Shown: positions 11,420 through 54,470, numbered from the stretch's first letter. The stretch: 64,000 bases of DNA from Gnetum montanum (GCA_015680685.1 MNCI01001841.1:124373-188372); one strand, 5' to 3'. The notes: generated by a model from the sequence alone, not told the origin. Made by a program: numbers and translations.

Positions 11420-11421
11420 TT

Positions 11422-18045: not shown

Positions 18046-18057
18046 CATGTTCATGCT

Positions 18058-21000
18058 TTAGATGTAGTATGACTTGAGATACGAGTGATTCAATGGATTT
18101 GCAAACTCGTTGTCGTCCATGTCTGCCAGCTTGAAGGCCCCATTCCCAAAGGCTTTTGTGACCATGTATGGACCTTCCCAATTTGCTGAGAATTTTTTCA
18201 CGTGCTCATGGACAGCCTTGAGAATGAGGTCTCCCATCTGTATTGGCCATTAAAGCAGATTTTCATGATGTTTCTATCATTTCTTATTCTAATAATGCTC
18301 TATGTGATCCAGTCTCTATGCACGTTCCTCCTCTATTGAGTCAAGGTCGATGATCCTCGACTCATTGTTTTGGGCTTCACTCATGACATTTGATAGGATC
18401 ATTCGAAGTGATGGCACCTACAACTCAAGAGGTAACACCGCTTTAGATCCATAAACAAGACTATAGGTGTCTTACTTGTCGCAGTCCTGCATGTTGTCCT
18501 GTAAGCCCATAACACATAGAGGATTTGCTCATGCCATCGCCTCTTACTGTTGTTAAGCATTCTTTTCAACAAGTTGATGATGGACTTATTTGTAGCCTCT
18601 ACCTATCTATTTTCCTATGGGTAATATAACAAGAAGAATGATTTTCTAATGCCAAGATTCTTGTAGAAGGTTTGGGTTTTCGTACTACTAAATTGTGGCC
18701 CGTTGTCGGTCACAATAGTCATAGGAAGCCCAAAACTTATCACGATGTTGTCCAAGATAAAGTGGAAAATCTACTGAGATGTAGTCTTCCTCAGGGGGAT
18801 AGCCTCTACCCACTTAGTAAAATACTCAATGGTGATGATGATGAAGCTATGCCCTACGGAGAACTTAGGCATGATAGGTCCTATGAGGTCTAGTCCCCAT
18901 CGCTAGAAAGGCCACGTAATCTGCATCAGATGCAGCTCTCTAGGTGAAACGTGTATGAGATTTGCACATCATTGGCATGTGTCACACATCTTGACTTTGG
19001 CCAGGCAATCATGTTCCATGTGAGGCCAATAGTACCCTAGATGTCTAATTTTTATGGCCATAGCCCTAGGTGCTATGTGTCCACCACACAGTCCCTCGTG
19101 TACTTCATTAACCACCTTCTGTGCTTGCTCCTCATTTACGCATGCCAGCAATATCCCATCATAGGAGAATTTGCACAGGGCATTGCCTCCCCTAAGCACA
19201 TATTTCCGAGCATGCTTACGAATCACATCTTTCTGGGTAGATGTCAATCCACTTGTGGGCTTGCCATGTTGTAGGTAGGCTTTAATGTTGGCATACCACT
19301 CTTGGGTATTCGCAACGCTGATAGAGGCCATGTGTACTACTTGAGTGATAGGCTCAGTACCCTTGGTAATTGAGGTTGGTAAACTTGCGAACAAGTGTGA
19401 TGGAATATTTAATGCTAGGGTGGCCAAGGCGTCTGCTATGGTGTTTTCGTTACGTGGCATATGTTGCACGTCCATAGTTGCAAACTGTTTGAGGAGGCTT
19501 TTTACTAAGTTGCAATAGGGTTGCAGGTGCATAGCTTTGCAAGCATAGACCTCGGTGATTTGATTCACAACTAGTTATGAATCTTCGTGAATTGCCAAGT
19601 GTTGTATGCTTAGTGCTTTGGCTGCTAAGAGACCCTTGAGTGACCCCTCGTACTCCGCCATGTTTTTTGTACAAGGGAACATAAAATGATGAGCTAAAGG
19701 ATGCATTTCCCCAAAGGGGAATGTGATGATAGCAGTGGCACTACCCCCTCGCATGGTCGAGGCACCGTCAAAATGCAAAGTAGCTTCAAGATGTGATGGG
19801 ACAACGTTGATAGTGCTAACATGCTCATCTGGGAATTCGGGGTCTATGATTGCTTGATCGCCGATGGGTGAGGTTGTAAATTACGTTGCTATGGCCTGAC
19901 CTTTCATCTACGATTGGCTCACATAATGCAAATTGAATTCCACTGTTATTGCTTTCCACCGGGCTATCCTACTGCTTTTGTAAATATTGTTTGTGATAGC
20001 CTGGAATATGTTGCTTTTGCAAATAATGTTAATTTTGCTACGAAATAGGTAGTGTCTCCACTTCTTCAATGCAAACACTAAGGCAAGGTAGTTTATCTCC
20101 ACCTCATTATCTTTCACTTCATATGCTATCAGTGCATGACTTAGGTAGTACATTGGTATCTCAGAACCGTGACCCTATTTCTAACATAACAGTGTCGTGA
20201 TAGATGTGTCTAAGGTGGCAAGGTAGATGAAGAAAGGCTTGTCCCTCTATGGTGGGTAAATAGTTGAGAGGTGCAAGAGGTCTTTCTTCAGATCATCAAA
20301 GGCTTGTTGGCACTATGGTATCCATTCGAAGTTAACCCCTTTCTTCAATAGATGTTGCATGAGGTGTAACTTGTTAGTCAACCTTGCTATAAACCTTCTG
20401 ATGAATTGTACCCTACCTTGTAACCTGTGCAATTCTTTAAGGTTTGTAGGAGATGTCAAGTTGACAATGGCCTTAACTTTGTTAGGGTCCACCTGTATTC
20501 TGGCCACCGATACTACAAACCCTAACATGCATCCGGTTCTCATCCCAAAGACACACGTTTTAGGATTGAGGCATAAATCATGCATCTGGAAACACTTGAG
20601 GACTATACCTAGATCATTGGGATGATCAGTGACTTCTTTAGATTTCACCGCTATGTCATCCATGTAGTCGTTCATCGTTTCTAGGATGTAGTCGCTAAAG
20701 ATGTAAGTCATAGCTTACTGGTAGGTTGCTCTGGTGTTCTTGAGCCCAAAAGGCATCATAGTGTAACAAAAGGTACCCCATGGGGTCATGAAGGTTGTTG
20801 TTAACTAATGCTTTGGGTTAATGCGAATCTGGTTATAACCGAAGAAACCATCCATGAAGGATAATAGAGCATGACTAGCCGTAGTGTCAATGAGTTGATC
20901 GATAATTGAAAGTGGAAAATCATCTTTAATCATTGCCTTATTCAGATCCCAGAAGTCTATATAGATTCATATTTCTCTTGTTTTCTTAGAAACTACAATG

Positions 21001-21560
21001 ATGTTAGACACCCATTCCGAGTAATCAACTACCTAGATGAAATCAGCTTGGTATAGCTTGGTGATTTCATCTCGTACAGCCAATGCGATCTCTGGTTTAA
21101 CCTTACGAGCCTTCTACTTAACTACTTTCATGCACGGGTCTAAGATAATGTTGTGTTGTATCAGCCTCAGATCTAAACCCGGCTCGTTGTATGACCATGC
21201 AAAGACTTCAATGTTATCTTGCAAAATTTTGGCTACATCTTTGTGCATCTGCTAATATAGGAGGGAACTAAGTTTCAACGTTTTTACCTCCCCCCTGGAT
21301 GTGGTCATATGTGTTTCAATGAGAGGGTCCTCAATTACATCCCTAGCCTCTAAATCTAGGGTTTGGACCAGATGCTCAGGCTAGTCTGCGGATGCTTCCA
21401 AGGATGCTACGGTGCTAACTACAGGTGATTCCCATTCTATTAGATCTGGGTTCAGTTGTCTTGCGAGTTTAACATGTGGACTTGCTAAAGATAGAGGTGA
21501 AGAGAGATCATGATGGATTTCCCTTCTCGCTCAACTTGCCAAAATGAGATGAAAGTCTAG
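18058..21560 (-). pseudogene. pol: Pol of element C: RT, RNase H, archaeal-type additional RNase H (aRH), integrase
   Basis: FAWSY, YMDDIAVKS, YYLSHAL, aRH motif HFDGAS...AEYEG...DALATLA, integrase HEGLCGGH...YYWP...CDTCQ, WEGPY and C-terminal YLKSYYI*; stops and frameshifts present. Confidence 0.9.
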
Positions 21561-21654
21561 TCAAGAGGTACCTGTTTGCAAGAATTGTGCATAATGATAA
21601 TTTGCAAAGTAGCAATGAGACGTAATTGGTAAAGTATGATGCAAAGCTTAAAAT

Positions 21655-21992: not shown

Positions 21993-22177
21993 CTAAAATG
22001 CGAGATATTTTTGTGAAGGCAAACGGTTAGCTTGAAGTGTGTCAAATTTTTTCGCCCAAGCCCACCTGTGTTAATGCGAACAGTGCTACGATGTCGTGGC
22101 GAGCATGCTATGCTACACAGAATACTCTGCATTAAACGAAGAGAGATAATGACAAGTTTCCTTTTCACCATCGTGGC

Positions 22178-22185
22178 TATAAATA
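22178..22185 (+). promoter_or_regulatory. Candidate TATA box of the antisense gene in C
   Basis: GGCTATAAATAGG about 135 nt upstream of ATG 22317 (MMAPRKEHK). Confidence 0.55.
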
Positions 22186-22316
22186 GGGATTAACCCCTGG
22201 TAAACTCGTCATTTTCACTGTAACAACGTAGAGCCCACATTCGGAGCATAGAGCGATTTTGCCAATAGAGAGCAAGGCAGTTTGATGTAGGAACGAAGAA
22301 AGAGTCAACAAGCAAG

Positions 22317-24600
22317 ATGATGGCTCCTAGGAAAGAACACAAACACCTGACACTCGCCAAGGTCGACGAAGTGAAAGAAACCCTAGGGTGTGTGACACAA
22401 GTGTGCATCACGGTGCGTGAGGAGACATCGTTGATCCTATAGGTCGATGTGCTCCCTCTATTTTCTTTTATGCCTTTGTTATTGCTTTTTTCTCTTCTTA
22501 TTTCTATTTTTGTGATTTTGTTTTGCTATTTGTGTTTTTTCTGGCATCAGGTTATCGTTGTCTTGGCCTTTACATCATCATTGTTGTCATTTCAGCCATG
22601 GCGGATGTACAGACGCTATGCTAAGATTGCATGCAAGGTCGCCTAGACCACCATCACTACAGCTGTCATTACCATAGAGGCTTGGACGATTTGAGCCACT
22701 TGGCATGCAAATAGCATAGTGTAGGACCTTCAGAAAGGTTTGGCCATGTGTGATGTGATAGTGTAACACGTGTTCTATCATGGCGTATTGTTAATCGCTT
22801 TGTTAGGGCTAATCTCTTTATCACTATAGCATTACCTTCGTGTTTTTTGCTACACTATATGCATGAAGGGAATCATGTTACACTATCTGCTAAAATACTA
22901 GTTTTGCTATGCTATGTTTGAAGTTTACTCAAACATGCCGTTAACATTTGCTATTGTGTTGTGTAGGGTAACACTACAGCCAATCCTGATTGTCCTCAAA
23001 ATTGTGGGGGTTATGTGCTATGTTAGCGAAGTAGTGGCCAATGTTCCTATGCCCTAGGTGCGTGTGGGAGAACAAGTGATCTGGTTTCAAGAGGGAGCGT
23101 AGGAGTTCCTACAATTTCTCCTCTAGCGCTTCAGTGTGATCATTTGGTCACACCTGGTGGAAGAGGTAGTGACTGCCATAACAGAAACCTTGTTGCCTGG
23201 GGAAAATAAGGGTATTCTAAGATTTTTGATGGATGGAGCAATTAGCAATGGGCAAGAAGAAGGATCTAGTCAACACCTTAGAAATTTGAGGCTTTTGGCT
23301 TAGATCTGGGAGATGCCTGAGTATAACTACTACCATCCCTACAACACCTTTTTTATTTCACATCACATGGGAACGTGCTTTCAAGACCCACCAGGAACCA
23401 TTTATAATGTTGGCAAGTGAGTTTTGTAACCATGTTCCACTATGATATGCAGTGTTTGCTACGCTAGCCAAATGTTAACGGTGTTTTTGTTACTAGGTTT
23501 TTCATCAATGAGGATGGGCTTCACCACGATACAGATGTGTTGACCTTAGCACAGATGGCGATGTGGGAGTTTTCTTCCGCTGAGACTATACACACAAGTG
23601 TGATAAACCAATGCAGGGGTGAGTACAAAACCTACCCAACTAGGTATCCCAGACTCTACAACAGATGCAAGGAGTCAGGTTGGTTGGATGAGGGATGGAC
23701 ACCCTTTAAACTGATCACAGTTGAAGATTCCTTGGATAATGTTCTACCATTCTCATCACTGTATAAACTTGGTAAGCTAAATAGTATGTTTCTGCATGTT
23801 TGAGTGTCATTGTTGTTTTTCTACTATTGGTGCTTTGTCTAACCTATTTTTTACCTTTTCTACTTTTTGGTATTTTTGTGTTTTTTTGTGCTAAATCCTT
23901 TTGTGGAAACTTCTACAGGGGTGAAGAGGTCCTAAGAGGTGATGGTGATTACCTCTGGGAACCATGAGGCTAATGTCTACTTCAAGTATGGGGAAGTAGA
24001 CGAGAGCTAATGTTGGATATGCAATGCGGCCCTAGAATCCCTGACCAAGCACCTTCAAGATGCTAGGCTCATGGATTTGTTCCTAGCCCTAAATCCAAGT
24101 GTCCTCGCTACTAAGATCCTCACCCTGGCAGACTCCTTCTCTGAAAAGGTAGACCACTTCCGCACACATGTACATGGCATGCGAGTGGTCCTCGAAATGA
24201 ATGACCAGCTATTTGTGGACCTTTTCGGTGTCCCTGCTAATGGCATCCCTATAGGGTCAAAGACCAAGAAAGAGGTGAATTGTCAGAGGGAGGACATTGA
24301 GGAGTGGCTAGGGGTTGCAAAGGGGTGAGAGGGGATCCCCATGGAGAAGATTAAGCTGATTGCCACCAAAGATGTTTATCTCATCTTCCATGCCCATGCC
24401 TTCCCCCAACTGCTTTCCCAAAAAAAAAATCATTGGGATTGAACAAGCTTGGGGAATGTGGGAGGTCATGGAAGAGGGGGCTCTCTACAATTAGGCTATG
24501 TATCTGTGCAAGGGCTTGCAAATTGAAATCGTTGTGCTTCATATGAAGTAGGAGTCTCACTTCAATATGCACTATGCCTTTTACATAGCCTGCTTATGGC
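22317..24600 (+). pseudogene. Antisense multi-exon gene of element C (FCP1/HAD-like pseudo-phosphatase plus plant-transposon-protein-like domain), 3'-truncated by D
   Basis: Predicted exons 22317-22442, 22551-~22737, 22967-23416, 23497-23771 and 23919-24600 with GT-AG, T-rich introns. The last three exons are phase-compatible, and their translation aligns with the gene in D. Confidence 0.7.
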
Positions 24601-26521
24601 TATAATGACCTAAATCGTCAGTGTAAGGCTAGAAGGGAAAACAAACATCAAAAAATCATCAAGCAGACACAGGTAACCCTACCTTTTCTTGAGGGTAAGC
24701 TAGAAAAAGGAAATGAAGGCAAAGTAACTTGGATGGTATGCACACAAATCAACCAAGGACTTCCCTAAGCATAAACTATGGCTTGTGCTAGGGTTATCTT
24801 AACTAATGATGTATGAAATGTAAATGGGAATGTATGAAATGCAAACAAAATGTGTACATAATAGTATTGCAAAAAAAATGTAAACTAAATGTAAAATAGA
24901 GTAAACAAAATAATGGCTGGCATAATGAACTGTATTGTATTCCTTAGAAAAGATGTGCACCAGTCAAAGCGTAGCTGCATGTGTGGATGGCAGGTCAAGC
25001 GCCAAGCCCTGGGGCGATGTGATTTGTTTCAAAAGTGCTTGGATGCTAAGAGTCAAGTATGTCCGAGTGTCCAAAGTTGCTGGTTAGTGCTTCCTAAGCC
25101 ATCAACGTCCCAAATTGCCAACCCTGTTTACGTGAATTGACAAGGTATTTATAGGGTTTGGCTAGGTTCAGGCATGGAATTCATGGATGGAATCGATAGC
25201 TGAGAGATGAGAGGAAAATGAATCATGTGACACATGTCCAATGGATAGCTGTGTGTGAGTTGAACGTGTGTGGGCAAGCTACGTTTTTGACCAGGTACAT
25301 TGTATCTTACAACATGTGTTGGCTTACTCAAGCTAACTTAGGCTCATGGAAATAGATACAATTTGAAGCGTAAGAGCTTGGTAGGGCCATACATGATGAA
25401 CATTTCCAATGAAAAATCATAATGTACTACTGTAGGGCCAGCTCACTTGAAACTTCTTGATCTCTGAATTGACTACTGTAGGATGTCGATCTGAGTGGTT
25501 TTGTGGCTGTTTGAGGCATTTTTGTTCCACAAAGGCTTCCAGCATGAGTTGATCTTGTCTTGGCATGTCTTTAGTGTGAGTTTGGCATGCTTCACATCAA
25601 GCATGATTAGTACTCACGCTGCCAGCATGACTTCAACATGACCTCAGTGTGAGTGAGCCAAAAATGACATATTTCACCCCAAATTTTGATTTTTGAAGCT
25701 TGATTCTTAAAATGTAATGATTTCTTAACTGTGATTGACCTTGAGAATGATCTACAATTTAAAAAATTGAGCCTGATGTGACTTTTTTACACCACTTTTG
25801 GGTAGCTTACGCTGGACTCACATTGCCAGCGTGAGTGCAGCGTGACCATAGTGTGAGCTGCAAAAACTTGCAAATTTTGGACATGAAATCTAGAATTCTG
25901 GAGGCCAAAATCTAAAGTTTTCAACAAATGAACCCTGAGGATGACTTTCACCTTGGAAATCAAATCATTTTGACTCATTTTTGGGCTTCAAAAGTTACTC
26001 ACGTTGCACTCACGCTACCAACGTGACCTCAGCATGAGCGTGAAAATGTGAAAAATTTGTCTCCAAATTTGAATTCCTGAATGCTAAAGCTTCAACTGGT
26101 CATTAGTGGCCCTTGAGGATGGCTTACAGCTTGAAAATTAGATCATTTTGACTCAGTTTTGGGGCTGTCAGAGTTAATCACGCTGTACTCATGCTACCAG
26201 CATGACCTCAACGTGACCACAATGTGAGTGAAAAAATTTGCACTTTTTGATCTGAAATTTGAATCCTTGAATGCTGAAAATTTGAACTAGGCACATCAGT
26301 GACCCTTGAGAGTGCCTTTCATCCTCAGACTAGGCCACCTTTGACTTGATTCTGATGCCATTTGGAGTTGCTCATGCTAAGTGCAAGCTAGCTTGGCAAG
26401 CCGAGCGTGAGCAAGCTGGGCATGAGTTCCATGCCTTAGTCAAATTTTTGCTTCCCAAAAGCTAAAAAGGCTTTGGGTTGTTTTCATTTCAAAGTGTTAG
26501 GCCAAAATTAGTGGTGTTTCA
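24601..26521 (-). repeat. 3' LTR of element D (~1.9 kb)
   Basis: Minus strand begins TGAAACACCACTAATTTTGGCC after the PPT CAAAGAGGGGCCAA (26522-26535); plus strand begins TATAATGACC, resembling TGTAGTGACC of C. Confidence 0.7.
25541..26430. repeat. AGCGTGAG/CTCACGCT motif clusters in the LTR of D (~185-bp higher-order units)
   Basis: Repeated actcacgct, cagcgtgag, gcatgag and acgtgacc. Confidence 0.8.
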
Positions 26522-27724
26522 TTGGCCCCTCTTTGTTGATGTCTAGAAGAATTCACTTGAGAGGTGTCGACAAAGAAGTGCAAAACATCATGAACAACCA
26601 AGCATCAAGCATTAACTGTCAGTCCTTGGCCAGATGTCATCACACCATGTTCAAAAGTATATGGGATTGGGGAAGTGTAGTTCAAGATGCAAGGGAATTG
26701 ATTGTAACTGGGAGAAGCCAGGAGTTGATCAAGGGTTATAATTGCTGCCAAGATTGTGGGAGAGGGATGCTCTCACGTGAATGAGCTATATCCTTGGTCC
26801 TTGTCAATAGCCAGTGTTTAGCAGACTCGGAGCCAAGACATAGGAGGTTCACTCTTTAGAGAAACGGGACTCTTATAAAGTGTTTATGGGGCCCATTGTA
26901 AATAGCCAAAGCCATGCGATGATGTGCAACATGATCTCTTTGAGATACGAGTGTAACGATTTTCCAAGACAATTGCCTTCTCGCCTGGGGCTTGTATGAG
27001 AATAGCCAATAGTCTTTGGTTTATGATGTCAATGGGATCATGAAAACATTTTTCATGCATTTTTCTCTTTGACCCTTGTGTTCTTTTTCTTTTTGTTTGT
27101 TTCTTATTTTCCTTTGTTTTTGTTTTCTTTTCTATTTTTCTTTTCTTCTTTTGAGTTCTTTTGAAAGAGCTTGCTTTTAGTACTGTGCTAGTGCTCGAGC
27201 GCTTGCATTTTGTATTATGTATCATGTACTATGTTTTGCGTTACAACTGCTTAGAGAATCACAGTGTGTAACAATGTATCAAGAGCTTTGGGGTGAGTAG
27301 AACGTATCCAACGGTAATTGAATAGGATAAGGGGAACATGATGGGAAATAGGGAATGCATCAAGAGTTGGGAATGTACTTATGAACGGATTGATTAACCC
27401 AGTTGTGGGCATTAGGAAGAATGTGATACCTTGTCATCATGATGAAGTGCATCCATGCACTAATGCCTTAGGCGTGTCATCTTGAAAACAGAAATCCAAG
27501 GAGATAGGGGAAGCCACAAATGATTTGGTTAGCTAAGCACTTTAAACCTGAAAGCAAACAAGGAGATGGAGCCACTGCGTGCAATTTAAAAGCAAACAGC
27601 ATCATGAACAACATCAGCCTCAATAATGTCTATGAGACAAATTATGCAACAAGTTCTTTATGGAACAGGCACAACCAATTGCAACAACATATCTTTTCAA
27701 GTATTGCCTAGTCGTCAATGATGT

Positions 27725-28280
27725 TGCTAGTTTATAGTCTTAGTAGACTATTGTGAATTAGTTTCACATCATAACCCTTTGAACGGCACCAGGTTAGCAT
27801 CATAGCAGATGGTGCATTGCTAGTTTATAGTCATAGCAGACTATGAAGAGGCAAACCAGTTTATAGTCTTAGTGGACTCTGGGTGCTAGTTTTATGTCAT
27901 GGCAGACAAACGTGGCATTTTAGTATCATATCAGACAAAGCTCTGTGGTGTCGGTTTAATGTCATGACTCTAGGACATTCTATGATGCTAGTTTCAAGTC
28001 ATAGCCCTAGGACCATTATGTGGTATGAGTTTTAAGTCATAATGCTAGGACTATTCTGTGGTATCAGTTTTAAGTCATAATGCCAAGACTATTTTGTGGT
28101 ATTAGTTTTAAGTCATAATACCAGGACTATTCTATGGTATCAATTTTAAGTCATAATGCTAGGACTATTCTATGGTATTAGTTTTAAGTCATAATGTTAG
28201 GACTGTTCTGTGATATCAGTTTTAAGTCATAATGCTAGGAATATTCTGTGGTATTAGTTTCAAGTCATAATGCCAGGATT
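27725..28280. repeat. 3' UTR tandem array of D, including seven homogeneous 38-bp units at 28021-28280
   Basis: Unit TGGTATCAGTTTTAAGTCATAATGCTAGGACTATTCTG, preceded by more degenerate copies. Confidence 0.9.
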
Positions 28281-28299
28281 GTTACATACCTCAAGTTCA

Positions 28300-31200
28300 T
28301 CATATATAGTACCGTTTTAGGTACAAGTGATTCATGGGATTAGCAAACTCATTCCCTTTCATGTCCACAAGTTTGAATGCTCCATTATTGTGCACCTTGG
28401 TAACCAAATAAGGCCCTTCCCAGTTGGTTGAGAATTTGTCTGGATGTTCACGGGTAGCCTTAAGGACTAAGTCTCCTTCTTTAATCAGGTGTTTGTGTAG
28501 ATCATGTTTGTGTCTTTTCCACTGTTTTTTTTGGTACCACTCGATTTGATCAAGTGTTTGAACATGTTCTTCCTCTATTGAGTCGAGGTCAACAATGCAT
28601 AGTTTATTATTTTGACTTTCATCGAAGAGGCTCGAGAGAGCTATCCGTAACAAGGAAACCTGTAACTCTAAAGGTAAAACAACTTCAAATCCGTACACAA
28701 GACTATATGGAGTTTTACCTGTAGATGTTCGATGCGTTGTTCTGTATGCCCACAATGCATAGACTAATTGTTCATGCCATCATTTCTTGCTCTGATTTAG
28801 CATCTTTTTGAGCACCATGATGATAGTTTTTTTTGTAGCCTATGCTTGACCATTGCTCTATGGCTAGTAAGGTGATGAAAATGCATGTTTAATACCCAGG
28901 CTTTCATAGAAAATTTTAGTATCTGCACTGCTGAACTATGGCCCATTTTCAATAATGATGGTCATCAGAATGCCAAAATGGATCATGATATTTTCTATTA
29001 TGAAAGTGAAAATATGTTTTGAAGTGGTCTTCCTAAGGGGAATAGCTTCTACCCATTTTGTGAAGTATCCAGTTGCGATGATAATATAGTTATGTCTCAC
29101 AGAGGATGATGGCATTATCGGTCCAATTAAGCCTAATCCCAATTTTTGGAATGGCCATGTGATTTGTGTTATGTGCAATTCGTTAGGTGGCACGTGTATT
29201 AGGTTGCATGTGTATTAGGTTACCATGCCTTTGGCAAATGTCACATGTTCTGACCTTGGAGATGCAATCGTACTCCATGTGTGGCCAGTAGTAGCCTATG
29301 TGCCTAATCTTTGTTGTCATTGCTTTGGGTGCAATGTGCCCTCCACAAATTCCTTTGTGGACTTGTTCTACAATTGTTTGATTGTCAATGCTACTAACGC
29401 ACATCAGCAAAATTTCTTCATAGGATTTGCAACACAAGGTGTCTCCTATTAATGCATATTGCCGAGAGCATTTTCGCAATGCGTCCTTTTGAGTGTTTGT
29501 CAAATGTTGTAGGGCTTCGCCTCGTAGAAGGTACTCTTTTATGTCATCGTACCATTCTATTGCGTGTGTTGTGCTAATGGATGCTATAGGCATTTCTTCA
29601 AGAGTGTTAATCATAGGTTTGGCACAACTTGTTATAGAGCTAGGCAATGCATGGAACATTTCAGGTGTCATGTTTAAGGCTAATGTAGCAAGTGCATTGG
29701 TGATGGTGTTTTTGCTTCTAGGGACATGCTGTATATTCATTTCTACTAGTTGCCTTAGCAGATGTTTGGTCAAATCATAATACAGTTGCAAATGGAGAGC
29801 CTTACATGTGTAAACCTCAGTGACTTGATTAATGACTAGCTGTGAATCACATCGAACTACAAGATGTGAGATTCTCGAAGTCAACGCTGCTTGAAGACCT
29901 CTAAGAAGACGTTTGTATTCCACCACATTATTAGTACAAGGAAAGGTTAATTGGTAGGTGAAGAGTTGGATTTCTCCAGAGGGGTATGTTCAAATGGCCG
30001 CAGCACTTCCTCCTCGGGAGGTTGAAGCTCCATCGAAATAGAGGATTGCCTCGTAGTTGTTAGGTACGGTGTCTATACTATTAACATTCTTGTTAGGGAA
30101 TTTAGGGTTTATCATTGCTTGATCATGTGTTGGAGAGACAGTTAACTCTGTGACTATTGCTTGATCTTTTATGGAAGATTGAGCAACATAGTATAGGTCA
30201 AACTCTGCGATCATCGCTTTCCACCTAGCTATCCTACTCAACTCGTAGATGTTGTTGGTGATTGCGTGGAGTACATTATTCTTGCAAATGATGTAAACTT
30301 GATTGCAGAAGAGATAATGCCACCATTTCTTTAAGGCAAAGATGATTGTGAGGCATGATTTCTCTACATAGTTGTATCGTTGTTCATAGGAAATTAAAGC
30401 ATGGCTTAGGTAATATACCAGGATCTCAACTCCATCTTGACATTTTTGACAAAGCATTGATGCAATGGAAGAATCAGAAGTTGCAAGGTAGATGTAGAAG
30501 GGTTTATCGCCTTGATGGGGATAAACTATTGGTAGTTGATCTAGTTCTTTCTTTATGTGCTCGAACGCTTCTTGGCATTGTTGAGTCCATTGGAAATGCA
30601 CATTCTTTTGTAGTAGGTGCTGCATAGGTCTCAACTTATCCATTAGCCTCTCGATAAAGCACCTTATGAACTACAGTCTACCTTGGAGACCACGTAGTTC
30701 GGTAAGGTTCTTTGGCGGTTGCATATTAGTTATTGCCTTAACCTTATTAGGGTCTACTCGTATTCCTATTTCAGAGACTACAAAACTAATCATCTTGCCT
30801 GTTTGGACATCAAATACACACTTCTTTAGATTGAGTCTAAGGTCATATTTGAGATAACTTTTAAGCACTAGGTCCAGATCTTTTGCATGTTGTTTAATTG
30901 TTTTAGATTTAACCGCAATATCGTAAATGTAATCATTGAGCAAATTAAGCATGTAATCACTAAATATATATGTCATTGCCAGTTGATATGTAGCTCCTAC
31001 ATTTTTAAGGCCAAATGACATCATCGTATAGCAAAATATGCCCCAAGGCATCATAAAAGTTGTTCTAAGTTGATGTTTCGGATTGATTCTTATTTGATTG
31101 TATCCTGAAAATCCATCCAAAAAGGATAATAGTGCATGCCCAGCAGTCATGTCAATAAGTTGATTGATGCTAGGTAGCGGGAAGTCATCCTTTATAGTGT

Positions 31201-31863
31201 CTATGTTGAGATCACAGAAGTTAATGCATATGCATATGCTACCATNCTCTATGTTGAGATCACAGAAGTTAATGCATATGCATATGCTACCATTCTTCTT
31301 AGGGACTACTACAATATTTGATACCCAATCAGAATAGTCAACAACCTGAATGAAACCTGCTTGGTAGAGCTTTGTGATTTTAGCACGGACTGCCAAAGCC
31401 ACCTCAGGACTAACCTTTCATGCATTTTGCTTCAGCAGTTTAATTTTTTTATTGAGAATGATGTTGTGTTGGACGATTCGGGGGTCTAATCATGGCATGT
31501 CGGTATATGACCATGCAAATGTTTTTATGTTGTATTTCAGTATTTGAGTGATGTCACTGACAAGTTGTGAGTCTAGTAGGGTGCTTAATTTCAACATTCT
31601 AGCTTCACCATTAAATGTAGTAATGGGGACTTCAACAAGAGGATCTCCAGTGATATTATCAGCTTCTAGATCCAAAGTCTTAGTCATATTCTTAGGCCAG
31701 TCTGACGTTTCTTGAGTGGAGGCTATTAAATTAGTATAGGTGGATGCGTCTAGATCCAAGGATTCTAGATTGATTGCTCTTTTTACCTCCCCATATGGTC
31801 CACTAAGAGACAATGTTGAAAGGATATTCTTAGTGGCCATGTGCTTGCTCCTGCCAATTTAAA
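28300..31863 (-). pseudogene. pol: Pol of element D: RT, RNase H, aRH, integrase
   Basis: FAWSYTDMP, LSFLDGFSGYNQI, YYLSHAL, aRH motif YFDGAS...DSQLVINQ, integrase HKGICGGH...CDICQ, WAYRTT, WEGPY, YLKRYYI*. Confidence 0.9.
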
Positions 31864-32400: not shown

Positions 32401-33915
32401 GCTAGCATGAGTTCTTGGACTGTAGCATGAGCTAGGAGTGCAATGTGAGCTATAGCATCAGCGTTAGCATGAGCAAGCCAACCATGAAGGACAAGGGCAG
32501 AGGAAAGGCAAGCTGAGAGAAAGGGAAGAGGTAGGAAGATCTGGCATTTGTGGAGGAGAGTGAAGGGCTTCTCCAACACCTACGCCAAGCTAGGATTCCA
32601 ACATCGGATGGGGCCCTACACAGGTAGATTTGTTTTCTTTTGCTTTTCTTCTGGCATTTTCAAACAACGTTAGCTATGGCAGAATTTTATGGCTGCAATT
32701 TTAGGGTTATTTTGGGATTTATCTGGGATTTGTGGTTTTCTAGTCTTGATTCTTTGTGGCATCAGCATGAGTGCCTAGGGCGTGAGTGCAAGTTACGTCA
32801 TAAGTGTTAGGGATATCCTGCACAGCATGAGCTTTTAGGGCTCCTTGGCAATGTGACTTTTTAGCCTTCATGGGCTTCCTGGGCCGTAATATTTTTAGCC
32901 TTCTTGACTGCCAAGGAAAGGCAAGCATGAGTACTAAGCTTTCTTGTGTAGTGTGACTTCTAGATTTGTTTTGCTGGGTAGCATGACTGCCAGGGGAAGG
33001 TTGGTTTTCCTTTTTCTTACAGCATGAGCCACGTTATTGGGGAGGTTTAAGCGTGATTGCCAAGTTTCTGAGTATCATCAATTTCTTTTCTTCTATATAG
33101 TGTGACCACTAGCATCTTGGGCAGCGTGAGCTATAGGATAAGGGTTCAGGGTAGCGTTAGCTACAGGTTCCAGGGCAGTGTGAGCTAGGTTTTTCAGCTT
33201 TTGGGGCTTCCTGGGCCGTAGAGTTTTTCAGCTTTTTTGGGCATCCTGGGCCGCAAGGTTTTTCCTTTTTCAGGCATCGTGACTTTCAAGCCAAGAAATG
33301 GCCAGCATGAGTTTGGGCTGAGTTTTAGGCCACAAAAAGGGCCAGCATGAGGTTCAGGCCACAAAAAGGGCCAACATGAGTGTGGACCAAGAAGGCCTAT
33401 GTTGCAGAAGAAGGCTTGTTCTTCTTGGTAACATGAGCTGCATTGCAGGGAAGGCCTATTCTTTTTTTTCTATTTTTGCATTGGCAACGTGACTGCCAAG
33501 TTCCTAAGCAATGTCAAATTTTTCTATGCAATGTGACCACTAGTGTCTCGGGCAACGTGAGCTACAAACAAGGGTTCCAAGGTAGCGTTAGCTGCAGGGT
33601 TCCCTAGTTTGAAATGTGAGTTCTGTGGGAGATAGGCATCGTGGGTAGCTGGAACAGGCCTTGATCCCCTGTAGCATGAGTTGCTGGTTCCCAACATGAG
33701 CTGGAATGTAGAGAACCCAGCGTGAGTGTTGGGGAGGTAGGTAGTGTGATTTTGCTAGAATAATCCCCAACGTGAGCCCTCCCAGCATGAGTCATTTGGC
33801 AACAGGCCCCAGCATGAGTTTTTCCCAGCATGATTCATCATTTGGGAAGCTGCAACGTGAGTTGTCCCTTGGGAGGCTGCAGTGTGAGTTGCCCCTTGGA
33901 AGCTGCAGCGTGAGT
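32401..33915 (+). repeat. Dense AGCATGAG/AGCGTGAG motif array in the promoter and first intron of the antisense gene of D
   Basis: Dozens of gcatgag, gcgtgag, acgtgag and gtgtgac units, essentially all in the same orientation. Confidence 0.85.
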
Positions 33916-36900
33916 GTCCAGGTTCTCTTTGCTGAGACATGAAAATGTAGAGTGCTTTCCAAGATGTTTGTTATTTACTGCTTTCTATATTTATATCATT
34001 TATTATTTTCCTGAGACTAATGATTTAAACATTGTTTTAGTGAGTGTTCATGTTCTGGACTTGTGTGTAGATTTACTGTGAAATGGATTTTGATGTACCC
34101 CACTGAGTGTCGAATACACTAAATAGATATTGGTGTCCTTGTCTCATGGGGTGAAGTTGTGCATTTAAAGTATTTTTTATGTGATTTTAACCTATTGTTA
34201 GCACTTAGATTCTTCAGTTACCTAATGTTTTTGCTGTATGTAAGGGACCTAAACCTTCTCTTGTCGTAGTTCAGCTTGTTGGCGTACTTACTTGGTTTGG
34301 CCCCTTTGGACCGGACACACCTCCTTATGACATGCAAATTGGGCCCCATGTGATATGGTTCCATCCCGATGTTAGTTCATTTTAATCATTCATCTTGTAA
34401 AATTATAGTGTGGTCATATGGTCTCATGTGAGTGAACAGTTGGCTTGTGATATCATCGAGACAGTGTTTCCTAGGTCTACATAAGGCATGCTTGCCTTTA
34501 TTATTGATATTGATGAGGGACTTTTTAGGGTTGAGGGAGGACCTACAAAGGGTCCTAGATCTACACGTCCTAATAGCAGCAACACACTTTTCTTAGCCTT
34601 CCATGTGCACACTCTATTCTAGAACTCACCTGGGATAGTATATAGAGTGGATAGGTATGCTCCTTTGCACCTTGCTTTACTTTTTGATTCCTTTTTAAAT
34701 TTTATGTCATCGTCTAAATGTAAATGTTGTTTTCCTATTGCAGGACCCATTTTGATGAACATGGGATGCGCGATGATGATGGTGGGCTTGCCTTAGCGAG
34801 CATAGCGTTAGACACATTCATGGTGGGCCCCATTCTTTGTGCCACGGTGTTGGACCAAACAAAGGTGACCCTTGTTTACTACCATAGGAAATTTTCAAGA
34901 GCCTTTGAGCACTACTAGGTTCGTGGTTGGTTACATGAGGATTAGTCTTCTAATGGGCCAATTTTTCCTTAAAGAATTGATTCTGCACCTACCCCACCTA
35001 CACCATTTCCTTATGGTAAATGACCACACTCTAGACTCTATTTTCTTTTTCATTGCACCCTTGCATATTATGTTTTCTTTTTAACTCTTCACTTTATGTT
35101 TTCCTTTTTATAGCAGCCATCACCTCCAAAGAAGTTACTATTATAATAGGACGTACTGAGGCAACCCTTTTTATGAAATATGGGGAGGTATAGCAATCAT
35201 AACAATGGTTGTAGAAGAGAGCTTTTGATTTGATCATCAGCCGCCTTACCTGGGCAGGTTTGATGGACTTGTTCATAGCTTTGACTCCTAGTATTCCGGC
35301 TACTAAGATATTCACCATTGTTGATTCTTTTAGTAACGATGCTTCCCATTTCACCATGCGGGTTCAAGGAGTCAATGTATCTTTTCACTTGACCATTGAG
35401 TTCCTTTCTAATCTTTTTGGTGTACCCATGGATGATGCCATAAAGCAACTAAAGAGGGTCAGGTCATAAGAGAGTTGGAGGAGTGGTTAGGTATCTCTTG
35501 AGGTCCTAAGGGCTTTGCCATGCGAGATGATACCCAATCAATGAAGATGAATTTCCTGTATCCTCTCTTCCAAGTGCAGGCATTCCCCAAATCTCTTTCC
35601 CAAGGAAGAAACCTTGGGATTGAGTCCATGCATGTCATTCATGCAGTTTTGGAGACAGGCATGTGCTACAACTTGGCACAATTTCTTGGATCTTGTTTTC
35701 ATGGAGAGATTGTCAAGTTACGTTCAAACATCCATGCTAAATTCCATTTTACATTTGCTTTCTTCGTGGGGTACCTACGTAGGTTTGCTGAGTTCCATGT
35801 AGTTTATGATGATAACCACTATATTTTGATGAACCGTTCACAACTGTCCCACCCTTGGATTCATCATTTTTTTGGCACCACTAGATCCCAATACCCACTT
35901 GAAGACATTGATGAATCAGTATGAGTTACTAGTGGAGGTGTGGCCAGCCGTTCCCATCATTCCCATTATAGCTTGGGATTGGAACTGCCTAGGCTGCACA
36001 TGTCTGTTAAAAGGGCTAAATGTTTGATTGGTGAGACTGTTGGGAAGTCTAAGATGAAGGTGAAGAGGAATGAACGCCCAAGAGAGCCTGTTCTAGATAT
36101 AATACCACCAAGATCAAAGAAGATTCGGTTTGTATTTCTAGTGGAGGATAAGTAGTTTATTTTATTGTTATATATTTATTATTTTTTTTGTTTTTTTTGG
36201 CCTATACACTATATATAATATGTTAGACTAACCCTAAGATTCTGGAATAATCAGAGGAAAATCCTAAGAAAGAGAGAGAGGCTTTGGCCCCAATGGTTGA
36301 CCCTGAGGTGGTTGTCACAAGGCCGGAGGAAGAGGCGAAGGAAAGAGAAGAAATGATTGAAGAACCTCCCACCTCACAAGAGGAAGATGTGACAAACGTC
36401 ATGGGACAAAGCTTGTGAAGGCTTTAGATGCACTTAGGCATTCAAATGATGAAAGAGGTGTCTTCAATGGTTTCTTTGATGGATCTTTGCAACTTGGTAA
36501 TCCGCCCAAGCTAAACAGTAGAGGGCTTTTTGGTATATTCCTTTTAGCTTAATCCATGTTTTCCATCCTTTAATTTTCATGTTTTGTTCTTGATTATCTT
36601 GATTATTTCTAGCATCAGAGGTAGATGCTGAGATTTCTGAGGCACATACATCTTAGGCAGAGGTGTCAGGATCATAGGTTCCAATTGAGATGAAGTCCCC
36701 TGCTTGTCCCACATCAACTGACCAGCTAAGGCCATGGCCTGAGATGCCTAACAAAATGGACTTTGTTAAGGGCATTGTTAATGATGTGGTCGCTCACCTA
36801 CAAGAAGCTCATCCAAAGCTAGGTATTTGTACATTACCTATTATGCTAAGTATCTAGTTTTATTTGTGTTTCTTTGCATTCATTTTTTTATTTTAGGTGA

Positions 36901-37897
36901 TTCATGTGTGTGGTGCTTACACCTGTAGGCACCAAGCTCCAGTGGGATCCTTCTAAAGCTACTCACATTGATGCTCTCTTAGAACTACCAGGGAATATTG
37001 AGCAAGTCCCTAGAAATGTGTACAATGCAGTTTCTAGTTGCATTATATAAAATGCCAAGTCGCTTTGGACTTGTAGGCATTCGGTTGAGTATCTATGGGA
37101 TGAGGTGCATTCATTGAAGGAAGCACTAGCAAAGGAGAGAGAGGAGAAAAGGGATCTCCAATCCCATTATGATCTTGCTACTGCTAGACTATCTAGTGAT
37201 AGCACTTAGTGTACATCTAAAATGACCTATGCACATTACTGGATGGTTTTGAGTAGAAAAGTGCAGGTGACACGGGATTTAGCAGAACAAAGAGCACAGA
37301 TGGATTTTCTAAACAAGAAATGTCATGATTGGAAGTCCTTTGTTGCAAAAGTGAGGAAGTGGGGTCAAGACCAAAAGGACCACAAGAATCAATATAAGAA
37401 ATGGTTAAATGAGGAGTCAGTTGAACAGTGCCAGATGGAGATGTTCATCGATGGGTTAGGCTTGTGGCCTGCTTATGACAAGTTTCTTGAGTGCACCGAG
37501 GTGGAGGGATCTCCCAAGAGAACCATTACTACTACCTCTGAGAAGGCTTCGATAGGCATGTTCTCTCTTGAGCATCCTACCTGGACTTTGGTGGACAAGG
37601 GTAAAACCCTGGCTGGTATTGATCTTGGCTTGGAGGAGGATTGGGCAAATGTGCTCGAGGGGGAGATTCTACGACGTTTGGAGGCCAACTTAGGGCCTTC
37701 CTCACTTGTGAGTGTTTTATTATGGCATTTATTTTTGTATGATTTTGTTGTTTTCATTGTTAGTGTTACTATTTATGATTTTCTTTACTACTCTTACCTA
37801 TTTTTTTTTGTTTTCTACTTTTTTATAGGGACATGTTAATGATGGAGCTGGCCCCAGTAGAGCGAGAGCGGATGATGAAGAGGGTCTTGGGGATTAG
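32469..37897 (+). pseudogene. Antisense multi-exon gene of element D (basic N-terminus, FCP1/HAD-like pseudo-phosphatase, plant-transposon-protein-like domain, acidic linker, coiled coil)
   Basis: Predicted exons 32469-32623, 34071-34169, 34244-34654, 34744-35015, 35114-36151, 36227-36532, 36613-36822, 36929-37707 and 37829-37897 (TAG). Introns are T-rich with GT-AG ends, one acceptor apparently mutated. Scattered in-frame stops. Confidence 0.7.
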
Positions 37898-38637
37898 CCC
37901 CCTTCCTAGTATTGATGCATGAGTTTGACTATTAGCTTGCTTTTAGCTATTAGATGTTTTGGATTTTCAAATGCCTAATGGGAATGTATGAAGACTAATG
38001 TATGACATGGATTTGATTGTGGTATAAAATGGTGGCATTCTATTTCCACTTTGACATTTAATATATTTTTTTCTTTTTCCACATTTTTGTTGTTTTTTTC
38101 TAATTTTCTCAAGTATATCGCAAACATGCGTGTAGCCGAATGTAAAGTGAGTTTCTAAAATGTAGAGCAAAACATAAAGCAAATATTTGAAAAAGAAAAG
38201 TAACGAAAATGCATGAATCAAAATTGTAGTTTGTAACATCTAAACAAAACTTCGACATAACGTAATGAATATTTGTGAACTTATGACGTATTGGGCTCTA
38301 ATTTAAAGCCATTTTGGGCTGTGCACCTTAGTTTAAAGTCATGGTGGACTGTTGCATCTATGGTGAAAGAGGAGAATGAGGGATTACTAGTTTTAGGCCA
38401 TAGTGAACCGAAGCTGATAACGATTTTTGGGAAACTCCAAGATGAACCAGCCATTTCTAACCATGGCTAGGTTAATGTCATTGCAGACGTTCGCTGGCAA
38501 TTTAACATCATACCAGACGATTGGTAGTTTAATGTCATTTTTGATAATTGGTAATTCACTCTAGTTGTTAAGTTGCTTCTTAACCCTTCGTAGCTTGACA
38601 TGAGGGGTGGGGCATGCAGGTACGATCTTATACTCAC

Positions 38638-39560
38638 CTTCCCTCTCACTGGAGATATCGAAAGGTAATTCTAACCAAGAGACATTGGTGGGAATGGCTC
38701 CTATGTTTGCGTCATCTAGTGCTCCTTCAGTTTTAGTAGGATTGTGAGTTAGCGTTGGGTTCATGTCTTGAAGTGTGCTCATGGTTCCTTGATTAGGCTT
38801 AGAAAATTCAATTTATGACCCTTGATCCCTTCCTGAGTATGAGAAAGTAAGTGATGTTATCATATCCCCATGTATAATGATTTCACCGCCCTCATAAGGT
38901 AGGTGGATCTCTTGATGGATTGGTGAGGATACAACTCTCAATCGAGCTATCCAAGGATGTCCTAGAATCAAATTAAACTCTAGCATTTCGTCAACTACTA
39001 CGAATTCAGCTGATGTGGGGAATTGGTCCCCTGCTATGAAATCTAAGGTAACTATGCCTTTCACCACAACATGGGAACCACTAAAGGATTTTAGGAAAGA
39101 AGTTGTTTTGGGCTGTATTTGTTCAGTAAGTCCCAGTTTTTTGATGATGGAAAAAGGTATTCCATTTTTTGCTGCACCTTCATCGACGTGCATCCTATGT
39201 ATCTTGAAATGATTAACCTATATCGTTATGAACATAGGGGATGTGGTAACTTCTCCTATTTTCTCATCTAGCCTAATGTCATTAGCATGAAACTCTAGGG
39301 ATGTGGTCTTTGATTCCTGAGGTTGTAGGGACAATACTACATAAATGGATGGCTTATCCACAGGGAGGTCCTCACTAACAGGAATTGAATTAGCATCTAC
39401 ATGAGAGCCTCCTGATGTACTGGTGAAGTCATTACTAGGTCATACAGACTTAAAGAAGTATTCTTTTGTTTCAAGGCCTCTGTAACCTGGGTCAACGTGC
39501 TCACTAGGTCTTTACTATTTGGGACACCTTTATCTACAGAGACTTGGTCCATTTAACCCA
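38638..39560 (-). pseudogene. Aspartic protease and flanking linker of element D
   Basis: PMFITI.VNHFKIHRMHVDEGAAKN...FNLILGHPWI (Tat/Ogre-type protease); the frame continues to a consensus donor AAG|GTGAGT at 38638/38637. Confidence 0.8.
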
Positions 39561-42438: not shown

Positions 42439-43290
42439 TGATATGCAATGAGTAGTTCCTACACCCAACCATATGAATGACAAGTATGTATTCATGATCC
42501 AATTCAATTTTGTCGACCCTTTTACCTAAGTGACCTCTATCTTATATAGTTAAACATAAGGTTACTAGTCATTGTCTTCCCAATCATCACTTGTGTTAAT
42601 TTCATCGATATTGCTAAGTGTGATTAAGGTGTAAGATATTTGTATTTATAATTTTATTATTTTTTATATTGAAAAAGTATTAAGAGATGAAGCAATTGAA
42701 ATATTAAACTTTAACTAATTAATGGAACTAAAGGTAAGCTCAACTATCCTAAACATAAAGCATACTTTTTGTACACATTCTAAACTCATACTAAAATTGT
42801 TGAGTTACAAACTGTTTACTACTTGGTGTACCAAGTATTCACTACTAGGATTACTAAGCATTAATATATTACACTTGAACTAGTCATACTAGTCATACTT
42901 ATGTTACTATAGAATAAAATACTAAATTCTTAAGCATGTAAGAAAAAGTGCTTGTAAGTAGATTGAATGCTAGTCCAAGTGTTGCAATAGGGAGAAAAAG
43001 CCTCAATTTTATTTTTATCATGAAAAAGTGTCTAGGTACATCTTTTACTTGAATAAAAACTTGTACAATTAATTAAATCCATGCTACGAGCACAAAGAGG
43101 AAAATTTCACTAACTCTAAAGGACTAAACTACAAGATCTTTGCTAGAGGAATTACCAAAGGTGCCATAAATGGATCTGTGCACATTTATATAGGCTTAGG
43201 GAGGATCAACATCAATACATATGCACCAATGCATTCAAGGATGCATCTATGGACATGCGTTGACATAGCCAACTTATTTAGACTTCATCA
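42439..43290 (-). repeat. 3' LTR of element B
   Basis: Aligns along its length with 54471-55337; TGAT...CATCA termini; PPT-like GTTGTGGGGGTA (minus) at ~43291-43302. Confidence 0.9.
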
Positions 43291-43769
43291 TACCCCCACA
43301 ACTAACCAAAAACTTGTCCTCAAGTGAACAACAAAACAAGATTGAGTTGTTTACAAAATTTTGGGAGTATGAAACCAAAAAAATAATGACAACAAATAGA
43401 CAAATTTGAGTGTCATTTATACATGTTATTTGCATGGATACAAAAATGTTTGCAAGGTATAAAGAATTTTGATAATTTGAAAAAATTTACAAGCATCAAC
43501 CAAATGGATTAGAATCAAATGGCATATTTATACTATGCCTAGATTTGGAGTCTCCTATGGCATGGAGGATCCTTCATCATGTCCATTCTTAGCTCAAGGT
43601 CTAGGCTACCTTACTATTGTTGCCAAAAATTACAAGCCATTTATAAGTGCCTTCATTTTCTCCTCCTCACCCTGTGGGTCATGAACAGTCTAGGTGGATT
43701 TTCCTAAATGAGTTGGTGTTGGTATATCCCATGCGTAAGGCAATGTTAGAACCATCTTCTTCTTGTTAA

Positions 43770-46268
43770 CAAAGCTACAAACTATTTACATTCAATGTCA
43801 AACATACATACAAGGTTTTGCAGCTCATGGTAATCATTCATTTTCCTAGGCACTTTCTTTTTCAACTTGACCTTAGCCTTTCCACTATAATAATTACCAA
43901 GCTTTCATAACAAATGTTGGCTAACTTCATGTACTCCATCATCTCTTCAATATGTAACTCCTTCAAGTAGACTTTAGCTTAATTGTAGACATTGAGGCCA
44001 TTAAAGATAGGATACCATACATCACCTCTTTGTTGGAGTTGCTAGAGGGCTTCATTTATTTTTGCCTTTTCCAATTTAATTTCTTTAACATTTACCTCCT
44101 TGAGCATTCCAAATTGGTCCCTATAGTTATTCATCACTCTTTCATATTTTAGAGCTTCATTCTTCCAATCAATAATCTCAATGATGGTTTTATGGCATGT
44201 ACCTCCTCCATTAAGAAATTTCTATCTTCTATAGTCAACCATCTCATGTCTTAGTACACCTTGGAAAGCAATTCTTGCTACTAATAAATATATTTGATCA
44301 TTTAGTTCTTTTTTTGTTCAACATTGCACAAGAAATAATTCTCCTAGGTTTGTGCAAGATTTTCCTTCTATATCTATTGAAGGTCATGGCTAGGAGAATT
44401 TGTTATTACTTTTGAAAATAATGCATCAAATATTGTCATCTCCTTAACATTCTCAACCTCCTAAAGTTTTTATTAAAGCCATTAAAAAGCTTCATCTCTT
44501 ATTAGCTCAAGCCTGAGAATTAATGGCTTCAACAAGTGGGCTCTAAGTTCTAAAACCTCAGGTGTCAATCATCAATTACTAATGGTGGCCTTCTCCAGTT
44601 GTGTATTAGCAATGATGAACTTGTTCCTTATCTCCAACAACTTTTATTGAGTGGCTAAAATATATTTTGAAAGATCAAAGATATCTAGAATTAATTTTTT
44701 GGCTCAAATCAATCACTCTAGCACCTTCTCATGCTACAATGCACTCATTTCCCTACTCCCTACTCCTACCAATACTTGGACATCTATCATGATAGTGACA
44801 TCANTTCTCCTACCAATACTTGGACATCTATCATGATAGTGACATCATGGATAGATGATACAAGAGCACTTAGAGCCTCTTCAACTATATTAACCACCAT
44901 TTCCACTACATTCTTCTAGCCCTTGTATGGCATGACTATGACTGTTACTCCATTCCCCTCTTCTACCATAACAAAAAAGGCTACTACATTCTCAAAAATT
45001 TTAGGAAATGCTTCTACCAAAATGGACATAGTAATTTCTTTAACATTAGGATTGAACCAAAAAAAAATCCTAGTTTCATTATGAGGAGAATAGTGGTATC
45101 ATTTTGTCCAATGGTGAAATAATGATCCTAGAAATCTTCTTAAAATGACTTATGGTCGAGTAGTACACAGAGGATTCTCCACCATCTCCAAAGGCTTATT
45201 GTTGTAACTATTATTTCCTAAGTCTCCTTAGGCATTTGATAGTTGCCACCATTTCAAGAAAAATTTGTAATGCTATAGGTGGTGGTGGAGGTGGAAATTT
45301 CTCCTCCTGTAGCTTGGCAGGTACTTTATCCTTCATCATATTCTACCATAATGCAACAGGAGCCTTACAGGTCATATCATTGACATAGTGAGCTATGCCT
45401 CCCTACTTGTAGAGTTTTCTAATGAAGTAGGGAAGGGAGAGTGTCTTCCTACCATTTTCATTTTCCTTGAAATTCTTTTTAATCTCTAGAAAGATGAGTT
45501 GGGAAAGATTAACTTGGGATTTTTCACTTAGAGCCGCATATGCCCTAAGATAGAAGGCAATCATCTTACTTGGTCTCATCGTGGGATTTACATCGTAAGC
45601 TACAATCTTGAAATAAGCATCCTTCACCTTAGTTTGGGCATCGTACTCCTTACAGTTTACTCCATCTCACTGCTAGATCATTTTTTCCTTACCTCAAGGT
45701 CCACTTATGTTAAGATTTCTACCAGCTTTTCCCTAGTGTTTGATAATATGAGAACTTTTGCAATTACCTCAACTAGATAAAAGCTGGTAATATCTTTGAT
45801 TTTTATGATTGCATCTCCTTGTTGGCTATTCTAGAAGAGGCAAATCTCACCCACGTATTATTTTCCACTAGTGGAGAGAATTGGCCATAGTGGAGACCCC
45901 TGCAGTTGTGTCCTAACCTCTTCTAGTGATATCTCTAGGAAAGGTCCAAAGTTCAACTCCTAAAGGATGGAGCTCTAAACTTCTTTACTTTATACCTTCT
46001 CTAGGTAGGCCTCCATGAGCATGACCTCTAAATTAGGTCATGATCTTGGAACCTTATCCTACCTAAATTATTTCATTTCAACTATGGAAATCTCATAGAA
46101 AAATTCCACCTCTGGTTCCTCACGCAAGGGCTTGGTAGCATGGGTTACCTTGGCAGCTTATTCCTGGGGTTGTTATTGTTGTTGTCATTATTATTCCCTT
46201 CTTTCATGAGGTCATTTTTCTCAAGGTTGTGATGGGTCTCCTACTTATGATCCTCACTCTAGTGCCAT
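43770..46268 (-). pseudogene. env-like/extra ORF of element B, homologous to ORF2 of A
   Basis: ELNFGPFLEISLEEVRTQLQGSPLWPIL and VNLSQLIFLEI...LSLPYFIRKLY match ORF2 of A; coiled-coil-like 3' part; 3' end approximate. Confidence 0.7.
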
Positions 46269-54300: not shown

Positions 54301-54451
54301 AAGCAAACATTTTTAGTTTGTTCTTTTTGTAGTGTGCCTTGAATTAAAATTAAATATTATTATTTCTAAGGATGATATGCTATGTATTCCTCTAATGATA
54401 TTTGTAAGATTTAACTATCTAAAATACTTGACACATAATAGCTAAAAATTG

Positions 54452-54469: not shown

Positions 54470-54470
54470 A

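Follow-up and report, generated by a model that had tools for sequence, protein, structure and literature searches.

What is a phosphatase domain doing inside a plant retrotransposon? The question is raised by a 64,000-nt stretch of the Gnetum montanum genome (GCA_015680685.1, MNCI01001841.1:124373-188372), here called the window, which consists of nested plant retroelement DNA. A sequence-only reading of it had picked out two related peptides, in the elements that we call C and D, and had taken them for a captured FCP1/SCP-like (HAD) domain turned into a pseudo-phosphatase. Both peptides lie exactly where that reading placed them, in one plus-strand frame per copy (Table 1). The explanation that we favor, and consider probable rather than secure, is that two Tat-clade families carry an antisense, spliced accessory gene with a captured, dead NIF domain, which acts as a binding module.

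Table 1. Positions of the features of elements C and D, counted from the first nucleotide of the window
Feature	Position	Strand	Remarks
Pol of C	18058..21571	-	Candidate acceptor at 21571
Antisense gene of C	22170..24605	+	TATA-like site near 22178, NIF exon, downstream exons
C exon, homologue of D exon	22967..23416	+	450 nt, phase 2-2
Pol of D (RT, RNase H, additional RNase H, integrase)	28300..31850	-	Candidate acceptor near 31851
Predicted first coding exon of D gene	32484..32623	+	Begins at ATG, ends at donor; phase 2, two stops
D exon, NIF/FCP1-like (HAD) pseudo-phosphatase domain	34244..34654	+	411 nt, phase 2-2
HAD motif I codons of D	34272..34280	+	Nucleophile Gln here, Glu in family; +2 Val or Ile
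HAD motif IV of D	34596..34604	+	Ala-Phe-His where Asp-Asp-Ser expected
Predicted next exon of D	34744..35000	+	Canonical acceptor, end approximate
Downstream coding block of D, conserved with C	35117..35924	+	Frameshifted
Predicted coiled-coil-like coding exon of D	36899..37707	+	Ends at RNA-supported donor
121-nt GT..AG intron	37708..37828	+	Spliced out in RNA reads of relatives
Aspartic protease region of D	38637..39217 (protease 38813-39217)	-	gag-asp_proteas E 0.025, under cut-off; candidate donor near 38637

The two exons are homologous (tblastn E 8e-20; 47/148 identical, 32%), and in a tree with host NIF proteins their domains form one clade (support 100/99) on a long stem; at the level of sequence, a single common origin of the two is shown. 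The splice ends of the C exon are canonical. In the D exon the donor is canonical and the acceptor is decayed in the window copy; in D's family the acceptor before the NIF exon is intact in 2306/2570 of contig depth in X1 and 850/1010 in X8, these being contig runs from different organisms. Four in-frame stops interrupt each exon (34383, 34398, 34482 and 34620 in D; 23055, 23100, 23124 and 23301 in C), and both window copies of the antisense gene are dead.

The identity of the domain follows from searches in both directions. A profile of the two exons, with X at the stops, was run by hmmsearch against 1.84 billion proteins and returns 17 of them at E <= 1e-3, none at E 1e-10. All 17 match Pfam NIF (PF03031) above its cut-off, and the best of them, a tandem-NIF protein of Sphagnum (P0003 cluster, KAH8970694.1; E 1.7e-7), is matched over the whole domain. 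An HMM of 17 host NIF domains from 16 proteins (P0018 omitted, P0003 counted twice) in turn places five overlapping tiles among 1278 six-frame tiles at 42-62 bits, all of them over the C and D exons, while the best tile elsewhere reaches 3.4 bits; on the exons themselves it scores 63.4 and 53.9 bits, versus 6.5 for the top of 2000 shuffles. This HMM is not fully independent, because its members were picked by their likeness to the exons. The Pfam scan, in which the queries were the decayed copies with X at four stops each, gave a weak answer: for C there is a NIF match of 15.9 bits (E 0.01), under the 21.8-bit gathering cut-off, and the D exon has no match. The word-based homologue search with C returned five candidates, none significant, and the metagenome scan with D returned 249 pattern matches, none confirmed.

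The two exons by themselves give an uninformative AlphaFold model (pLDDT 34.8). With 17 homologous rows added, the 18-row model has a pLDDT of 81.6, leaning on the NIF rows supplied to it, and shows a HAD Rossmannoid fold whose top structure matches are Scp1, CTDNEP1, UBLCP1 and Fcp1 (best Z 11.6, rmsd 3.1, 128 aligned residues, for Scp1). By sequence, the closest solved relative of the 18-row profile is UBLCP1 (E 3.8e-12), Scp-type chains are found at E 3e-5 or worse, and Scp1 at E 6e-5 or worse; the two-exon profile has no matches in the PDB sequences. With matches to NIF proteins only, the host HMM and the 18-row model in agreement, the claim of a retrotransposon-borne NIF/HAD fold is borne out.

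The exons are 16-27% identical to DLNG-type host NIF proteins, which we take to be those called C1271.03c-like, and share with them the pattern LVL..G, FL....F.V.IWS, L.F, NT(L/F) and NP. We infer that the C and D domains were captured from a DLNG-type host NIF gene before the two families split. One NIF protein with Glu at motif I (P0004) was considered as a donor or close relative and rejected, as it is 19-22% identical to the exons and does not group with them; only one other relative of P0004 was found, and one cluster member has Asp at motif I. Together with P0034-P0036 and P0045, P0004 makes up a small divergent NIF cluster whose motif I has Glu or Asp and whose motif IV has Asp-Thr; the cluster is known from short contigs only, and is possibly a separate pseudo-phosphatase.

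In the active site, the catalytic aspartates are replaced. The nucleophile is Asp in 14/16 DLNG-type host rows, and is Gln in D and Lys in C; at the +2 position of motif I, 13/16 host rows have Asn and both copies have Val. Motif II is Ser in both copies and Ser or Thr in 17/17 host rows. The motif III Lys (17/17 host rows) is aligned with Arg in both copies, in an indel-rich and poorly aligned stretch, and the RP-motif Arg, also invariant in 17/17 host rows, is lost. For motif IV, the host rows have Asp (17/17) followed by Asp (14/17), where D has Ala-Phe and C has Ser-His. Replacement of the motif I Asp and of the late DD, as proposed earlier, thus holds in both window copies.

For D's family, the state of motif I was read from contigs and RNA reads over 34215-34325 (111 bases), with variants at a 20% threshold. 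At the nucleophile codon, Glu is encoded by 3192/3199 (X1) and 1160/1169 (X8) of the contig depth, as well as by 10/10 and 3/3 RNA reads, and the other two bases of the codon have no variant at the 20% threshold. D's Gln is private to the window copy, and motif I of the family is Glu-Leu-Val/Ile-Gly. The second motif IV codon cannot be Asp or Glu in 15/17 and 20/20 RNA reads (35/37 in total) and in 985/1319 of DNA depth; the first is known, as Ala and Ser, from the two window copies. These data show that catalytic loss is a trait of D's family, beyond two decayed copies. The DxDxT motif is not that of D's family, with its Glu at the nucleophile position and Val or Ile at +2, but DLNG-type hosts already carry Asn at the second motif I Asp, so part of the loss is older than the capture. 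The proposal that a captured host domain became a pseudo-phosphatase is thus upheld for its NIF homology and family-wide Glu, and has to be amended for the part of the loss that predates the capture.

Asp-to-Glu nucleophile mutants of Scp1 and Fcp1 are inactive. In Fcp1, Asp170 is the nucleophile, Asp172 the general base, and Asp297 and Asp298 bind Mg2+ (PMC4436666, accessible text); given this mechanism and the replaced aspartates, the domain is predicted to be inactive as a phosphatase. With its catalytic aspartates replaced, the domain is likely to be a protein-binding module rather than an enzyme. The core of Tim50 offers an example of an FCP-like domain used for peptide binding.

Two other readings of the altered site have to be weighed against a binding module. 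One is that the site has been rewired, with the motif I Glu and two His forming a new metal or phosphate site with some other activity. Both copies have His at motif II+1 and motif IV+1, which no host row does (0/17), C has a second His within motif IV, the His positions line the active site in Fcp1 (PMC4436666, same excerpts), and the Glu is nearly fixed in D's family. We nevertheless regard a rewired site as distinctly unlikely, since the His residues are known from the two window copies only, C carries Lys at motif I, and the RP-motif Arg is lost as well.

The other builds on the sequence-only reading, and has the inactive domain attached to the phosphorylated Pol II CTD, where it would shield or steer transcription of the element. 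The CTD-proline pocket of Scp1 includes Phe106, Leu155, Tyr158, Val118 and Arg178 (PMC7281111, accessible text). By ungapped register, the equivalents of Phe106, Leu155 and Tyr158 are Pro, Ser and Leu in D and Glu, Val and Val in C, so that none is kept of the three pocket residues mapped among the five. With these residues missing, CTD binding is unsupported; UBLCP1 is also much closer than Scp1 by sequence, and the literature entries listed, in the form available, gave no sign of the DLNG-type host subfamily acting on the CTD. In its favor, the best fold matches are Scp1 structures, some of them with CTD peptides, substrate binding by Scp1 does not need the catalytic aspartates (excerpts of PMC7281111), and the motif II Ser is kept; on balance we take CTD binding for a very improbable account of the domain. 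The control of the element's transcription, splicing or silencing, which the sequence-only reading also proposed, is conjectural. In summary of its relationships, the element domain has the fold and the motif II Ser in common with UBLCP1, Scp1, CTDNEP1 and Fcp1, and differs from the FCP/SCP phosphatases in having neither DxDx(T/V) nor the mapped Scp1 pocket residues, and in being encoded by a mobile element.

The elements that carry the domain are recognized by their pol. Its Pfam order is RVT_1, RT_RNaseH, RVT_3 and Integrase_H2C2, and thus includes the additional RNase H by which the Tat clade is defined, in an order common to Ogre and Retand (PMC6317226, main text) and found in gymnosperms as well (PMC13468544, PMC10508981, accessible portions). 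The pols of C and D are 64% identical as DNA, and their RTs 67% identical as protein. In a quick RT tree built from 62 sequences (59 out of 120 listed matches, none a labelled reference element, plus 3 RTs of the window), those of C and D group with each other (SH-aLRT 86); they fall outside the angiosperm group, with Ginkgo nearest. The best database matches of the RT are 50-51% identical, and the viral-contig scan with the RT gave two matches, neither confirmed.

On the minus strand, D has the protease, a 6.8-kb spacer with candidate splice ends, and then RT; Ogre has a spliced intron between PR and pol (PMC4408406, accessible text). The antisense gene of D sits between protease and RT, and that of C lies 5' of pol. 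No LTR pair was located for C or D within the window, so we infer the limits of the elements. This leaves room for another anatomy, in which an element with only gag and protease has the antisense gene as its usual 3' extra ORF and happens to lie beside a separate pol remnant, all the more as the protease-to-pol splice sites are candidates only, their frame not being established in the decayed copy. C and D agree, however, in the orientation of the gene and in its start, which lies no more than 0.6-0.8 kb 5' of pol, and the two have matching repeat arrays and a common block 3' of the integrase. We therefore judge the separate-element anatomy unlikely; the claim about the domain is unaltered by it.

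Transcription antisense to pol follows from the intron at the end of the coiled-coil-like exon, close to the gene's 3' end, which is skipped by 20, 19 and 20 reads in three RNA runs and by none in the DNA run. The RNA reads derive from relatives of the window copies (643/772 reads in X16 are less than 90% alike) and cover the NIF exon. How the NIF exon is joined to its neighbors is less clear. Six X16 reads have no intron end before the NIF exon, and carry five letters that resemble the end of the predicted first exon, which is suggestive only of a joint between the two; reading through the predicted exon-1 donor by 20 and 19 RNA reads counts against it. Another 19 RNA reads have other sequence before 34750, and no joint of the NIF exon to its neighbors is among the read joints listed (there were 79 others). 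RNA depth tracks DNA conservation, and so does not alone define exons. The RNA-empty stretch at 32734-33384 was rejected as proof of an intron, as DNA depth falls there too. An RNA-only joint with non-canonical ends at 36814-36941, near a predicted intron, is present in 8 (X16) and 9 (X17) reads, and poly-T reads account for the very high depth of X13 at 36156-36198.

Downstream of the NIF exon, the predicted next exon of D is weakly like C 23498-23775 (E 0.05), and the conserved block is 44% identical to C 23942-24235 and 29% to C 24330-24605; homology of the two antisense genes ceases near 24600, where C is cut off. To us the block is presumably PMD-like in appearance. Its decayed pieces match no Pfam family, including PMD (PF10536), and the Atlas gave unnamed plant clusters at 0.93 and a DUF1985 cluster at 0.89 with 25% of members, so that a PMD/DUF1985-like identity is a lead only. 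Transposase_32 was tried and rejected (hhalign probability 0.3 and 0.04, in a weak test against a two-row profile), and the block has no likeness to the Transposase_32 ORFs of the window. The coiled-coil exon has no family match in the Pfam scans and no usable match in the Atlas.

Whether the domain has a role at all can be approached through the many copies of D's family. The same 111 bases (34215-34325) are covered by 498 contigs in X1 and 314 in X8, and the family is therefore high-copy. Within the exon part, 10 of the 20 variant rows are synonymous against an expected share of 0.28-0.31 (p 0.03-0.06), and only 1/20 falls on a second codon position (p 0.003), in a test that covers 27 codons and non-independent rows; this avoidance of second codon positions suggests selection on the exon. 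The stop at 34620, the sole one that could be checked, is absent from 13/13 and 16/16 RNA reads of the expressed relatives. Set against these results is the passenger view, on which a single capture brought in the domain, which has since travelled with the spacer without any role and is now in decay. Each window copy does have its four stops, the C-D identity is 32% in the exon compared with 67% in RT and 44% in the downstream block, and splicing of the exon into the gene is only suggested. A mere passenger is nonetheless quite improbable: besides the variant pattern and the lack of the 34620 stop in expressed relatives, two families with RTs that are a third different have both retained the domain, its hydrophobic core pattern is still detectable among 1.84 billion proteins, and its acceptor is intact in most of the family depth.

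Antisense extra ORFs are known in Tat elements (PMC7264820, PMC11963269), and those of the clade include the PMD of Ogre and TRP28/DUF390 of Retand (PMC4408406, PMC6317226, PMC11963269; all in their accessible parts). As in the Tat elements described there, we find RT-RH-aRH-INT, gag-PR separate from pol, tandem repeats, and an antisense gene with a conserved block and a coiled coil. The Tat extra ORFs described in these texts are placed either 5' of gag or in the interval from pol to the 3' LTR, whereas that of D lies between PR and RT, and the D gene differs from them further in its several introns and its NIF domain. For an antisense gene rich in introns, the literature examined has no description of a place between protease and RT. 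A host enzyme domain has likewise been fixed in a plant Ty3/gypsy lineage of Phalaenopsis, whose AlkB m6A demethylase extra ORF has retained its catalytic residues and shows activity in vitro (PMC9289625, main text); here the catalytic residues are lost.

In the texts available we found no described case of a retrotransposon whose extra ORF has a NIF/HAD domain. There is none among the 12 domain rows of the Neumann 2019 eORF table (PMC6317226, whose Additional files 1 and 3 could hold one), the main text of the orchid Ty3/gypsy paper (PMC9289625) names no phosphatase, NIF or HAD domain, although its Supplementary Figure 1 could, and our literature searches brought up no report of one, with Steinbauerova 2011 as a further place that could hold it. 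Under the term "phosphatase", the Arabidopsis TE product atlas has no such domain. The function of the Tat, Ogre and Retand extra ORFs has long been open because they rarely resemble anything known. The present module is recognizably of host origin, its fold is known and its active site is mapped, with the enzyme off and the fold kept, and its function is therefore directly testable; with it, a pseudo-enzyme would join the few host domains that have become fixed in retrotransposons of plants.

The binding-module explanation can be put as a sequence of steps. An element would have captured a DLNG-type NIF gene once, prior to the split of the two families, and the domain would then have lost Mg2+ binding and the aspartyl-phosphate step, judging from the known mechanism of Fcp1. 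Translation would put the NIF exon, the conserved block downstream of it and the coiled coil into a single protein, the old active-site face may hold on to a nuclear partner from the host, probably a phosphoprotein, and the accessory protein could favor expression of the element against silencing.

In Arabidopsis, MAIN and MAIL1, which are PMD proteins, together with PP7L, and the PMD-PP7 fusion MAIL3, act on gene and TE expression (PMC7156037, accessible text). They likewise combine a transposon-related with a phosphatase-like domain, but are host-encoded and of the PPP rather than the HAD fold, and the host PMD-PP7L module (PMC7156037, PMC5418596, in part) serves as an analogy for what the element protein might be. 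A fuller version of our explanation, in which a gymnosperm Tat lineage carries in its gag-pol intron an antisense gene that combines a PMD-like part with a HAD pseudo-phosphatase, whose Glu/His pocket binds phosphoproteins and which counters silencing, strikes us as rather unlikely in all its parts. If true, this PMD-like/pseudo-phosphatase fusion would be the transposon-side counterpart of the host PMD-PP7L module.

The block common to both elements 3' of the integrase lies at 16200-17300 and 26500-27500, beside tandem arrays with 30-nt and 38-nt units (17570-18050 and 27939-28318), and has no informative Pfam match in the plus frames tested. A further Ty3/gypsy-like element occupies 42451-55291, with LTR-like direct repeats that are 79% identical (42451-43258 and 54483-55291), an RT that lies near 50139-50780 and, near 45361-46028, a Transposase_32-like ORF. 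Homologous to it is a 6.4-kb stretch at 83-6472, which is bounded by 51-nt inverted repeats (98%) and has gag-like, Transposase_32 and coiled-coil ORFs on the minus strand; the Transposase_32 match is at 1780-2280 (E 2e-13). A perfect inverted repeat with 227-nt arms and a 55-nt gap is found within coding region at 1276-1784, and is possibly an assembly fold-back. A Ty1/copia-like remnant on the plus strand at 8421-11477 was recognized by eye from its ORFs. Single N positions flanked by duplicated sequence, as is typical where short-read scaffolds are joined, occur at 15037, 15150, ~31245 and ~61070, and one such joint duplicates part of D's RT.
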